From the NCBI GenBank assembly GCA_004322215.1, contig SCSM01000007.1:192071-256070 (forward strand): a stretch of 64,000 nucleotides of DNA. The letters run 5' to 3'. The notes beneath the pieces are model-generated. The model made no database searches, was not told the origin of the DNA, and worked only from the letters and a program-made list of their open reading frames with translations. Made by a program: the position numbers and the translations under genes. This DNA is from Bacteroidota bacterium. Its GTDB lineage: Bacteria; Bacteroidota; Ignavibacteria; Kapaibacteriales; UBA2268. This document shows positions 48,783 through 52,409 of the stretch, piece by piece (within the stretch, counting starts at the first letter, position 1; each line of letters begins with the position of its first letter).

Positions 48783-48886
48783 AGAATTTTTAAATAAAAT
48801 TTGTCATATTATAAACTACAAATTTATTAAATTTCAGGGCAATAAATTATAAATAATTTGGTAAATTATATTGATTTATATGAAAT

Positions 48887-49765
48887 TTGAGCTATAACAT
48901 GAAAAAATATCTATCAAAATCTCAGATTGAAGAATTGAAGCAGGATTTCAAAGAAAATCTTAAGGGTTTCGTTCAGACATTAAAATCAAATGTTTCAACA
49001 AAGTCAAATGAATGGACAATTAAGGGATTTATTGATGTTTTCAAAAATATTTATACTATATCTGCAGATACAAAAATTATTTCAAAAATTTTAGAAATTC
49101 ATATTTTTCCCAAACTTTTAGATTTTGCAAAAGAAAATTCCTTTAAACTTGTTTTACCAGACCATCAAAATTATTATCCAGACATTTCATTGATTCATTC
49201 ACAAAACGATAATATTAAATTCGCAATTGACCTTAAAACTACTTATCGTTTACCCGATAATCCTGATTTCTGTAATGGATTCACTCTTGGCTCCCATGGT
49301 GAATATTTCATAAACAGAAGCAGTAAGAAAAATATTCAATTTCCATATAATGAATATTTAGGTCATTTTTGTTTAGGTATAATTTATACAAGAAATGCCC
49401 CAGAAAATATTGATGAAACAAAAGTATATTCAATTGATAAATTAAAATCCATTTCTTCTGTAATTAAGGATTTTGAATTTTTCGTTTGCGAGAAATGGGA
49501 AATAGCAAGCGACAAGAGCGGTTCCGGAAATACTGCAAATATTGGCAGTATAAATAAAATTGAAGACATTATCAACGGAAATGGAACCTTTAAGAAACTA
49601 GGTGAAAAAATATTTGATGATTATTGGATGAATTATAGAAAAATTTCAATTATAAATGACAAGGGAATCGAAAAGAAAATTACGAAGCTGGTCGAATTTT
49701 TAAATTACAGAGGAATTAAATCTGAAAATATTAACAAAAAAGCAAAAAGAGGAAGGAAAATATGA
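48887..49765 (+). CDS. Type II restriction endonuclease, EcoRV family
   Basis: 292 aa; from memory of EcoRV: HQNYYPDISL / IKFAIDLKTTY (PD..D-x-K catalytic motif), FTLGSHGEYFI, LGHFCLGIIYTR, KWEIASDKSGSGNTANIGSI, DDYWMNYRK, terminal NYRGIK all parallel EcoRV blocks; stop overlaps M gene start (ATGA). Confidence 0.8.
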   Translation: MSYNMKKYLSKSQIEELKQDFKENLKGFVQTLKSNVSTKSNEWTIKGFIDVFKNIYTISADTKIISKILEIHIFPKLLDFAKENSFKLVLPDHQNYYPDISLIHSQNDNIKFAIDLKTTYRLPDNPDFCNGFTLGSHGEYFINRSSKKNIQFPYNEYLGHFCLGIIYTRNAPENIDETKVYSIDKLKSISSVIKDFEFFVCEKWEIASDKSGSGNTANIGSINKIEDIINGNGTFKKLGEKIFDDYWMNYRKISIINDKGIEKKITKLVEFLNYRGIKSENINKKAKRGRKI

Positions 49766-50679
49766 AAATATTTGTTCCTCCAATAAAATGCCAGGGTATA
49801 AAAACCAAACTTGTAAGCTGGATAAAAGATAATTTATCTGATAATAAGTTTGACAGGTGGATTGAACCATTCATGGGTTCAGGTGTCGTTGGATTTAATG
49901 TTCGTCCTCATAAAGCAATTTTTGCAGACACAAATATTCATTTAATCAATTTTTATAATGCTGTTAAAACGGGTGAAATCACACCAGCTATAGCACGATA
50001 TTTCCTGGAATTGGAAGGTATGAAACTTGCTAAATCCGGGCAGAAATACTTCAACGAAGTTCGTGAAAGATTTAATATGGATTTTAAATCCCTTGACTTC
50101 TTATTTTTAAATCGCTCATGCTTTAACGGAATGATTCGATTTAATAGATATGGTAAATTCAATGTTCCATTCGGTCACAAACCAAATAGATTCTCAAAAG
50201 CATACATAACAAAAATTGTAAATCAGATAGATTACATTTCACAAGCTGTGAAAATATTAGATTGGCAGTTTGTTTGCAGGGATTTCAGGGAAACGTTGAA
50301 TGAACTCAATAAAAATGATTTTGTTTACTGCGACCCGCCTTATTTAGGAAGGCATGTTGATTATTTCGATTCATGGAACGAGGAAGATGAAAAAGATTTA
50401 TTCAATTTATTAGACAATTCAAACTGTAAGTATATCCTCTCGACATGGCACAGCAACCAATATAGAAGTAACAAGGAAATTGACAAATATATTCGGCAAA
50501 ACATACAAACAAAGGAGCATTTTTATCATGTCGGAGCCAGCGAGAAAAACCGAAATGCTATGACAGAAGCATTAATATCGAATTATATGCTCCCAAAACA
50601 AAAGATAGATTATACAATACCAACAGGTGTGCAGTTGCAGATTATGGAGCCAAAAAGGAAGTATAAATTAAGAAAGTAA
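49762..50679 (+). CDS. N6-adenine DNA methyltransferase, D12/Dam class, M.EcoRV-like (predicted GATATC)
   Basis: 305 aa; FVPPIKCQGIKTKLV, EPFMGSGVVGFNV (FxGxG SAM motif), LFLNRSCFNGMIRFN, VYCDPPYLGRHVDYF (DPPY), EHFYHVGASEKNR - block for block like M.EcoRV as remembered. Confidence 0.85.
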   Translation: MKIFVPPIKCQGIKTKLVSWIKDNLSDNKFDRWIEPFMGSGVVGFNVRPHKAIFADTNIHLINFYNAVKTGEITPAIARYFLELEGMKLAKSGQKYFNEVRERFNMDFKSLDFLFLNRSCFNGMIRFNRYGKFNVPFGHKPNRFSKAYITKIVNQIDYISQAVKILDWQFVCRDFRETLNELNKNDFVYCDPPYLGRHVDYFDSWNEEDEKDLFNLLDNSNCKYILSTWHSNQYRSNKEIDKYIRQNIQTKEHFYHVGASEKNRNAMTEALISNYMLPKQKIDYTIPTGVQLQIMEPKRKYKLRK

Positions 50680-50686
50680 TTTTAAA

Positions 50687-52387
50687 ATGAATTTCGAAGT
50701 ATCCGATTTAATTGATTACAAGCAATTCGAAGATTTAATTGCTGATTGCTTTAATGCAAAAGAAAGGACTAATACATACATAATTTTTGGCAGATCAGGT
50801 CAGGCACAAAAAGGTATAGATATTTATTCATCAGAAACAAAAACAGCAATTCAATGTAAATATATTTCTAGTGATATTGTTAATCAATATAAAAGTTGTA
50901 AAAATAGATTAGAAAAAGATATAAAAAATGAAGCTACTAATGCATCTAAATCAGGATTGGAAATAAAACATTTTATTCTAGTTTCAACTTTTAAACATGA
51001 TCTAGATATTATTAAAAAAGCCGAAAAAATTAAAATTGAAAATAATCTACCTTTTATATTATCATATATTGGATGGGAGGAAATCATTAAAATTGTTAAA
51101 CAAAATACACCAATACTTGATAGATATTTTCCACAAGTAATTGATGCTCTTGATTCCAGAGAACCCCCCAGAAAGTTAATTGATGCTATTGGATCTTATA
51201 AAAAATTTCCAAGTGATTATTGGTCTTTGATACCACAAATTCATGGAAATACAGTTAGTACAGAGTTAGTTCCAAAAAGGCTTGATTCACATTTTAAAGA
51301 ACCTATGATTTTTAATACGTTATTAAAATTTGATTCTGAAAATGAACAGTCATTTTTCTTAACTCAATATAATGATTTTATCAAAAAAGGGACTCCGTTT
51401 CAAATTGAAGGGAAATATATAGAAAATTTAAAAATACCCGAAAAACTTAAACCATATTTTCCAGAAAAAATTAATAAATTAATTTTTTCACCCTTAACAA
51501 ATATTATACCCCCATTAATAGTAAATTTTATATATAAAGATTTAGATGGAGTAATATATTCTTTAAATAAAATTCCATTAAGCATGGTGAGAAGAGGTAC
51601 TGATGAAATATTGTTATCATATAATGACACTAATAATCCTTTAAAAGTAAATTACCTTTATAATCCAATCCTACATAAAAGAAAAGTTGATATTAAAATT
51701 GATGTTAAAGGTCATAATATTAAAGCAGCCTATGATACTTTTAAATTTCTTATAAACCTTAATAAAGGTGGTGAATTTAAAATTATTTCCGATGAAATAG
51801 GTTTTGAGATTTTTAAAGATAATTATAAACCAAAAAAAGTTGCTAAAGGTAAACTTTGGTTTTTAGATTTTCTAAAATTATTATTATTTTTCCAACAAAC
51901 TTTCATAATCCAAATGAAAGTACCTTTGGAATTTAATGATTATGATTTCAATTATTTAAAAACAATTATTCATATTGTTAATAATGGATATGCTGAAGTT
52001 TTTTTCAGTAAGTTGGAATTAAATGTTACCATAGCATATGCAAAATATTTGGTTAACAATATGAAAGAAAACCAAGATTGTGGTTTCATTCACCACGAGG
52101 AAGGTATGATTCAGCTATTCAATACTAAATGTAATATTGGTAAAATAATGATTTTCTTTAGACCAATCAATATTGAAAAAAAGAGTAGAAATTCAATAAT
52201 AAAAAATAAAAATACTTCTAATGATAATAAAATTATTAAGTTAAAATTAGAATTCTTGAGAAAAGAACCTTCATATATGTTTTTGGAAAAATTTGTACCA
52301 AATGGGTATAGTTTTGATGAATCTTCATTAAAGGAGTATGTTCATAAACTTATCCAAGAAAAAAGTGAAAATAACAATGTGTGTTAA
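50687..52387 (+). CDS. Uncharacterised protein with N-terminal Mrr-like PD-(D/E)xK nuclease motif, R-M associated (candidate defense protein)
   Basis: 566 aa; FEDLIADCF..YIIFGRSGQAQKGIDIYSSETKTAIQCKYIS matches the Mrr_cat pattern (G-x-D hairpin then Q-x-K); remaining ~430 aa Lys/Asn/Ile-rich with no recognised motif, no P-loop; starts 8 nt after the MTase stop, same strand, same AT-rich composition. Confidence 0.5.
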   Translation: MNFEVSDLIDYKQFEDLIADCFNAKERTNTYIIFGRSGQAQKGIDIYSSETKTAIQCKYISSDIVNQYKSCKNRLEKDIKNEATNASKSGLEIKHFILVSTFKHDLDIIKKAEKIKIENNLPFILSYIGWEEIIKIVKQNTPILDRYFPQVIDALDSREPPRKLIDAIGSYKKFPSDYWSLIPQIHGNTVSTELVPKRLDSHFKEPMIFNTLLKFDSENEQSFFLTQYNDFIKKGTPFQIEGKYIENLKIPEKLKPYFPEKINKLIFSPLTNIIPPLIVNFIYKDLDGVIYSLNKIPLSMVRRGTDEILLSYNDTNNPLKVNYLYNPILHKRKVDIKIDVKGHNIKAAYDTFKFLINLNKGGEFKIISDEIGFEIFKDNYKPKKVAKGKLWFLDFLKLLLFFQQTFIIQMKVPLEFNDYDFNYLKTIIHIVNNGYAEVFFSKLELNVTIAYAKYLVNNMKENQDCGFIHHEEGMIQLFNTKCNIGKIMIFFRPINIEKKSRNSIIKNKNTSNDNKIIKLKLEFLRKEPSYMFLEKFVPNGYSFDESSLKEYVHKLIQEKSENNNVC

Positions 52388-52409
52388 AATAAAAAGTCTT
52401 GATTCAAAT

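Follow-up and report, generated by a model that had tools for sequence, protein, structure and literature searches.

The EcoRV restriction-modification (R-M) system of pLG13/pLG74 is carried by a small mobilisable plasmid, and in the classic Escherichia coli pLG13 locus the gene of the methyltransferase (M) is divergent from an operon formed by the C gene and the gene of the restriction endonuclease (R) (PMC5333194). The C protein encoded by this locus is a helix-turn-helix protein. Other R-M pairs, annotated in RefSeq as an "EcoRV family type II restriction endonuclease" together with a Dam-family methylase, are found on plasmids pRMAR01 of Rhodothermus marinus and pSMS3-1 of Antarctobacter heliothermus, where they are located among insertion sequence (IS) elements, toxin-antitoxin or other defence genes, and where R precedes M in collinear order, overlapping or nearly abutting it, without a C gene. 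Here we report on a block of three co-oriented open reading frames (ORFs), all on the + strand, located at positions 48783-52409 of a 64,000-nucleotide (nt) stretch of a Bacteroidota bacterium (contig SCSM01000007.1, positions 192,071 to 256,070 of the forward strand; assembly GCA_004322215.1), hereafter the window. The three ORFs code for an EcoRV-family R, an M.EcoRV-like M and a protein of an uncharacterised family that we refer to as gene 3. Our results indicate that the block is in all likelihood a small chromosomal defence islet of a Kapabacteria-like genome (Bacteroidota/Ignavibacteriae group), composed of an old and intact EcoRV-type R-M core and a newer add-on, gene 3.

The R encoded by the islet belongs to the same fold family (PF09233) as EcoRV of pLG13/pLG74 and shares with it the E/D/D/K catalytic set as well as the recognition elements GSGNTxN and QN, but the locus is chromosomal and is organised as R-then-M, without the C protein and the divergent M of the plasmid system. 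It has the collinear order, the lack of C and the long R subfamily in common with pRMAR01 and pSMS3-1, to whose endonucleases the R of the window is 56% and 54% identical, respectively, and R and M overlap or nearly abut in all three. These pairs are plasmid-borne, whereas that of the window has gene 3 behind it and is surrounded by housekeeping-type genes of the chromosome. The R-M pair belongs to a well-known family and its layout is common in databases; the potential for novelty at this locus is limited to gene 3.

An earlier note, made from the letters of the window, had assigned R to the EcoRV family with a PD...D-x-K core. This assignment is supported by a full-length match to the Pfam profile PF09233 (Endonuc-EcoRV; E = 2.3e-116, 387.9 bits for a cutoff of 25, profile positions 2-244 of 244) and by a match to EcoRV in PDB at 3e-39. 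R is 35% identical to R.EcoRV of pLG13 and is longer than EcoRV, extending beyond it by ~21 amino acids (aa) N-terminally and by ~22 aa C-terminally. In an alignment of five R proteins (that of the window, EcoRV, the two plasmid homologues and an orthologue from a relative of the host described below), residues E66, D95, D111 and K113 correspond to the catalytic residues E45, D74, D90 and K92 of EcoRV and are invariant, as are Q90-N91, the counterparts of Q69-N70 of the EcoRV Q-loop. The motifs YPDISL and AIDLKTTY are both present. The loop G208-S-G-N-T-A-N214 corresponds to the EcoRV recognition loop G182-S-G-N-T-T-N188, in which the only change, the replacement of T187 by A, is common to all four long-subfamily members of the alignment. 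R could start at TTG 48887 (292 aa) or at ATG 48899 (288 aa). The latter is likelier because the orthologue, which has TTT in place of the upstream TTG, has its own start codon at this point of the alignment, and the length of 292 aa initially given for R should be revised to a more probable 288 aa.

M is a protein of 305 aa that matches the profiles of Dam-family (D12, alpha-class) N6-adenine DNA methyltransferases (PF02086, E = 3.1e-48, 165 bits for a cutoff of 22; TIGR00571, E = 6.4e-59, 199.8 bits for a cutoff of 114.85). Its resemblance to M.EcoRV, including the FxGxG and DPPY motifs, had been pointed out from the letters and is borne out by 56% identity with M.EcoRV of pLG13 over 296 aa (E = 4e-117) and by the presence of motif I (FMGSG, residues 37-41) ahead of motif IV (DPPY, residues 191-194). 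Identity to the partner methylases of Rhodothermus and Antarctobacter reaches 58% and 56%, respectively. On the other hand, M matches E. coli Dam in PDB at just 6e-19 (residues 10-195) and scores 96 bits against the E. coli Dam equivalog NF008152, below the cutoff of 441. Judging from these alignments, M is far closer to M.EcoRV than to the GATC-specific Dam. GATATC is the best-supported predicted target of both enzymes, in agreement with the specificity first proposed, because the recognition residues of R are kept and because of the level of identity between M and M.EcoRV. R would be a PD-(D/E)xK endonuclease cutting GATATC and M an N6-adenine methylase protecting the same site. For an uncultivated, Kapabacteria-like lineage, the pair is a predicted GATATC system that comes as no surprise but is useful for REBASE-type catalogues and for attempts to transform such organisms.

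R lies ahead of M on the same strand and the two genes share an ATGA stop/start overlap at 49762-49765, as noted earlier, and they probably form one translationally coupled unit without a C protein. There is no room for a C gene in the 116 nt that precede R, and both genes are on one strand. The divergence of R and M in the classic EcoRV locus, which the earlier note had mentioned, agrees with the pLG13 record and with the published description (PMC5333194). Nevertheless, this departure from the classic layout is not specific to the window: a collinear R-then-M order without C was observed in all 10 other loci examined in which R is at least 47% identical to that of the window (R. marinus pRMAR01, Antarctobacter pSMS3-1, the locus of the more distant relative described below and seven IMG/VR viral contigs). 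The overlap between R and M is TAATG in the relative and ATGA in Rhodothermus. Loci with an R at most 40% identical are divergent or convergent, or the fetched DNA contains no M.EcoRV-like methylase; the EcoRV-family locus of a Geobacillus plasmid is divergent with a C protein, and those of Acinetobacter and Latilactobacillus, which also encode a C protein, are convergent. The collinear C-less organisation is a trait of the "long" EcoRV subfamily, already in databases, and no local novelty. As the standard arrangement of a subfamily, it raises the regulatory question of how methylation is established ahead of restriction. The same question applies to Eco29kI, whose enzymes are unrelated to the pair of the window and which shares with it the R-first, partly overlapping order; Eco29kI is an R-then-M overlapping operon in which an M promoter lies inside R and antisense promoters are present (PMC3113576).

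That the block is an indel was confirmed by comparison with related genomes. EF-G and ClpC of the closest sampled relative (GCA_016219595.1) share ~97.5% protein identity with their counterparts, and the products of the two genes flanking the block, an oxidoreductase and an FG-GAP protein, are 89% and 78% identical, respectively. One of its contigs (JACRLY010000113, hereafter L086) carries an empty site, consisting of the first 21 codons of the oxidoreductase gene, the conserved intergenic region and the start of the FG-GAP gene at position 195. Positions 48719-48873 of the window are identical to positions 1-155 of L086 at 146 of 155 positions, and a second solid block of homology pairs 52420-52545 with 207-327. 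The ~3.5-kb indel is real and extends from ~48874-48880 to ~52388-52419, that is, from ~20 nt before the ATG of R to just past the stop codon of gene 3. The empty site was located through the FG-GAP homologue and not through the oxidoreductase. It is visible on contig 113 (L086) alone because the assembly breaks inside the oxidoreductase gene (codons 21-70, between contig 95, L006, and contig 113), a break that does not coincide with the edge of the islet. A genome scan using the oxidoreductase yielded 80 loci; of these, only that of the nearest relative retains synteny, on a contig that begins inside the gene.

A more distant relative (GCA_027371665.1 / ERZ27233560; loci L087 and L088), in which the oxidoreductase and the FG-GAP protein are 75% and 66% identical to those of the window, carries R and M at the identical left junction, behind a homologous leader and with 82-83% amino acid identity. 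For R, identity to the L087 orthologue is 82.2% by alignment and 82.8% by tblastn, and synonymous sites are saturated. In both L087 and L088, gene 3 is missing after M, and genes coding for TcmP (three-Cys-motif partner, TIGR04474) and DUF5131 are found instead, hence the position after M is a variable cargo slot. When the window is compared with L087 at 4-fold degenerate sites, R (identity of 0.375) and M (0.373) behave like the flanking oxidoreductase (0.353) and FG-GAP (0.400) genes. Since this identity is like that of the flanks while the proteins remain 82% identical, R and M appear to have resided at this position as long as the flanking genes and under purifying selection. Such divergence would make the pair an old resident of the locus and no recent import, and the co-divergence of R and M under purifying selection argues that both enzymes are functional. 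The possibility that R and M are pseudogenes was rejected, as both are intact and conserved at the protein level despite saturated synonymous sites. The R-M pair would have been present at the locus before the two sampled lineages split, its loss in the JACRLY lineage being the simplest scenario, and the slot after M would have turned over, with gene 3 in the window and TcmP/DUF5131 in the other lineage; recombinational spread between lineages is a possible alternative. The locus provides a three-state example, namely empty, R-M with gene 3, and R-M with TcmP/DUF5131.

The earlier note had described the block as lower in GC than its neighbours. This is true of the block as a whole, whose GC content is 26.8% compared to 34.9% for the remainder of the window and which is the lowest 3.6-kb stretch of the window, ~3 standard deviations (sd) below the mean, but it does not extend to M. 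Relative to the 34 other ORFs of the window (mean GC content at third codon positions, GC3, of 0.306, sd 0.035), R and gene 3 are low (GC3 of 0.219, z = -2.5, and 0.147, z = -4.6, respectively), and M, at 0.321 (z = +0.4), is similar to host genes. The low GC of the block is due to gene 3 and R, not to M. The L087 orthologues of R and M are also low in GC (0.29 and 0.33, respectively); because they are equally low, low GC is a persistent property of R and M rather than a mark of recency. Low GC need not mean recent arrival, as illustrated by an R-M core that is AT-rich through long co-divergence with its flanks. The tetranucleotide GATC is found only 11 times in the window, where 206 occurrences are expected (observed/expected ratio of 0.05); 3 of these 11 sites are inside gene 3, and none is in R or M. 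Gene 3 is set apart from R-M as newer because of its GC3, its three GATC sites and its absence after M in L087, and its addition to the R-M pair probably came later.

GATATC sites are present at 4084, 4120 and 18139, as listed earlier. The accompanying statement that GATATC is not avoided holds roughly at best, as the number of sites is mildly reduced, with 15 in the window compared to 22 expected under an independent and identically distributed model or 27 under a Markov model (observed/expected ratio of ~0.55 for the latter). The block itself contains none, and depletion is comparable in the available short fragments of relatives. Such site counts say little on the activity of the methylase.

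Gene 3 starts 7 nt past the stop codon of M. It has no match in Pfam (E <= 0.1), NCBIfam or PADLOC and thus scores below the threshold for Mrr_cat. A word-indexed search with the single sequence of gene 3 returned itself and one partial match, and with an alignment as query it returned itself only, whereas an exhaustive HMMER search found 374 relatives. These relatives reveal two parts. The head (residues 1 to ~150-155) occurs in many architectures, including proteins that combine STAND/NB-ARC/NACHT and TPR domains (Avs-like). The tail (from ~155-175 to ~530-560) defines a family of ~540-aa proteins with interchangeable heads of restriction-endonuclease fold, among which Mrr_cat (15 of 36 relatives, through heads that differ from that of gene 3), DUF4365 and NA-iREase1 were recognised. 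An AlphaFold2 model built from an alignment of 36 sequences reached a predicted local distance difference test (pLDDT) score of 87.6, while a single-sequence model was unusable (pLDDT of 35). Using the former as the query, Foldseek matched the head only, to CdiA-CT, the nuclease head of Avs4 and EcoT38I with a probability of ~1 each, and the top viral fold match is a phage protein named "restriction endonuclease". The putative nuclease residues are E15...D45...Q56-x-K58, of which D45 and Q56-C57-K58 are invariant among full-length homologues. Based on the model, the head of gene 3 appears to be an Mrr-like PD-(D/E)xK nuclease domain with an intact signature, sharing its fold and the D...QxK signature with Mrr-type domains such as Mrr_cat and the N-terminal effector heads of Avs proteins. 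Gene 3 is very probably a DNA nuclease of the defence type. We discarded the possibility that it is itself an Avs protein: only the head is common to gene 3 and such proteins, and it lacks both NTPase and TPR domains. In the Avs relatives the head is fused to a STAND NTPase, whereas in gene 3 it is followed by a ~400-aa tail that matches nothing.

Only two full-length homologues of gene 3 were found, at three loci, and each adjoins a co-oriented DNA methylase gene. The first homologue precedes an N6_N4 methylase, with gaps of 40 nt in one locus (L093) and 37 nt in another (L089), in an islet flanked by housekeeping genes; the second follows an Eco57I/TaqI_C methylase with a 5-nt gap. The L093 islet (positions 5001-9279, on a 180-kb metagenome contig) is located between pta/ack and aromatic amino-acid lyase genes. 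Besides the 543-aa homologue of gene 3, its three genes encode an N6_N4 adenine methylase of 509 aa and a PDDEXK nuclease of the DUF1016/YhcG type. A metagenome scan with a three-sequence alignment retrieved mostly short, head-only proteins that are not linked to methylases and that occur in other defence-like contexts. Plasmid and phage collections contained no full-length homologue.

Several observations weigh against our interpretation of the block as an old R-M core with an added defence nuclease. Synonymous sites are nearly saturated between the window and L087, and the co-divergence test consequently has low power. The direction of the indel may be a loss in the closest relative, or an independent or recombinational gain in two lineages. 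The specificity call is based on homology, with R only 35% identical to EcoRV and carrying the T187 to A change, and the mildly low count of GATATC is not diagnostic either way. Scans of the block identified no reliable promoter, terminator or internal M promoter; the sigma-70-like promoter scan returned 26 sites compared to 26.6 in shuffled sequences, with a consensus that does not cover the promoter type of the host phylum. The C-terminal two-thirds of gene 3 have no fold or family match, including by Foldseek, and its distant family members are solitary, without methylases nearby. As specificity shifts are known within restriction-enzyme families, the limited identity of R to EcoRV and its altered loop residue could also mean that the pair recognises a site different from GATATC. 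We regard this as improbable, given that the identity of M to M.EcoRV spans the whole protein, including the motif I-IV region, and that EcoRV residues G182, S183, G184, N185, T186, N188, Q69 and N70 are invariant in the five aligned R proteins. It seems equally improbable that the three genes arrived together, by a single recent horizontal transfer from an AT-rich donor, which is how the block had first been interpreted. The minimal GC of the block, the empty site in the closest relative and the occurrence of EcoRV-family R-M pairs on plasmids and viral contigs would fit such an origin, but in the more distant relative the R-M pair and its left junction are shared with the window, R and M have diverged at synonymous sites as much as the flanks, and another gene comes after M. 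Moreover, the GC3 of M is ordinary, R and M lack GATC as the host does while gene 3 has three, and the block is associated with no integrase, transposase, tRNA or convincing target duplication. No recombinase gene was found in the block by ORF and Pfam searches, and no tRNA in the window. Nor does the block have convincing flanking repeats, other than an imperfect AT-rich one of 17-19 nt (48871-48887 and 52398-52416). A prophage or transposon was also considered and rejected, mobility genes being absent.

Gene 3 is most likely a further DNA-targeting defence nuclease, more recently added. We tentatively favour a stand-alone enzyme, either type IV-like (modification-dependent) or otherwise triggered, that happens to be clustered with R-M. 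This would be consistent with the use of the same head as effector in STAND/NB-ARC/NACHT and TPR proteins and in many other architectures, with the fold match to the Avs4 nuclease head, with the solitary distant family members found in variable or mobile contexts, and with the variability of the slot after M. It is less easily reconciled with the lack of a recognisable sensor or NTPase domain in gene 3 and with the tight linkage of its closest full-length homologues to methylases of the N6-methyladenine (m6A) type, which would be hazardous for an m6A-dependent enzyme. That linkage rather suggests a second restriction endonuclease protected by the adjacent M.EcoRV-like methylase (R1-M-R2): both full-length homologues, at all three loci, are co-oriented beside a methylase at 5, 37 or 40 nt, the partner methylases are all predicted N6-adenine types although of three different classes, gene 3 itself is 7 nt from M, and its nuclease triad is intact. 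We nonetheless consider R1-M-R2 doubtful, because the homologues represent just two independent cases, the wider family defined by the C-terminal domain is mostly solitary with no methylase nearby, and a newcomer nuclease would have to share the specificity of the resident methylase by coincidence. It is more doubtful still, and on the whole unlikely, that gene 3 is the founding member of a hitherto undescribed family of restriction endonucleases linked to methylases, in which an Mrr-like head is joined to a ~400-aa tail with a new mode of DNA recognition, and that it shares M with the unrelated EcoRV-like R in an R1-M-R2 operon. If so, the two endonucleases would redundantly restrict identical or nested sites. 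Regardless of its role, gene 3, for which the earlier note gave no interpretation, is the least ordinary part of the block and points to an uncharacterised nuclease family that would be cheap to test.

The features of the locus are listed below. The gene upstream of the block, on the minus strand, codes for an oxidoreductase with ADH_zinc_N and GFO_IDH_MocA domains, whose homologues assign the host to metagenome-assembled genomes (MAGs) of Candidatus Kapaibacterium / Ignavibacteriae type; the downstream gene codes for a protein with FG-GAP, ASPIC and Por_Secre_tail domains, a cargo of the type IX secretion system (T9SS). The block is indeed bounded by a bi-domain oxidoreductase and a T9SS cargo gene, as described in the earlier note, although its boundaries have to be corrected since the first ~91 nt are host DNA. 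In the closest relative, the equivalent of 48783-48873 sits immediately upstream of the FG-GAP/T9SS gene, and long invariant runs are retained in this segment even in comparison with L087. No Rfam family was matched by 48783-48873, which likely holds a conserved divergent promoter or leader. The oxidoreductase/FG-GAP intergenic region shows 94% identity with the closest relative, exceeding the conservation of the surrounding coding DNA. The leader of R is similar to that of R in L087. The start of the FG-GAP gene is best placed at 52410, leaving 22 nt between the stop codon of gene 3 and this probable ATG, and no terminator was predicted at the end of the block (52388-52419). The cassette would thus be inserted between a host promoter region and the FG-GAP/T9SS start, where host signals probably drive its transcription, and the FG-GAP/T9SS gene probably depends on read-through. 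Gene 3 corresponds to NCBI locus tag EPN82_02815, on a 298-kb contig of a metagenome-assembled genome, and was also assembled in Logan SRR8426592.

Coordinates of the features of the islet, of its immediate surroundings and of the cargo slot in the more distant relative (window positions unless a locus is named).
Feature	Position	Strand	Remarks
Conserved host intergenic region	48783..48873	.	Outside the indel; between oxidoreductase and block
Left indel boundary, with the short 5' leader of R	48874..48898	+	Homology to the empty site of L086 stops at ~48873-48880
R gene, EcoRV-family type IIP restriction endonuclease	48899..49765	+	ATG start; PF09233
M gene, M.EcoRV-like Dam-family methyltransferase	49762..50679	+	ATG overlaps the stop codon of R
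Gene 3, 566 aa, uncharacterised family	50687..52387	+	Putative Mrr-like nuclease head and tail
Right edge of the indel	52388..52419	.	Homology to L086 solid from ~52420, weak from ~52388
TcmP/DUF5131 pair	L087 3535-5104; L088 1459-3028		Slot after M
GATC sites	5523, 14977, 41083, 47679, 50793, 50999, 51192, 54530, 58764, 59887, 60490		Whole window

Besides GATC, two other palindromes are scarce in the window, GGCC with 10 sites compared to 69 expected (ratio of 0.15) and CTAG with 9 compared to 41 (0.22), and contigs of both relatives (L006, L086 and L087) show the same depletion of GATC. Because the GATC and GGCC palindromes are strongly avoided, we suggest that the lineage has long been exposed to GATC- and GGCC-cutting enzymes encoded elsewhere.

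Beyond the loci compared above, 13 IMG/VR viral contigs (L132-L144) encode homologues of the EcoRV-family nuclease with 36-39% identity, and no M.EcoRV-like methylase was detectable in the flanking DNA retrieved; such EcoRV-like nucleases may be phage-borne and solitary, or may be paired with another type of methylase. The second-lowest-GC stretch of the window, at 9422-12700 (+), has a GC content of 0.294 and a GC3 of 0.236. It codes for a 1092-aa protein with TPR and CHAT domains that may be acquired or defence-related.

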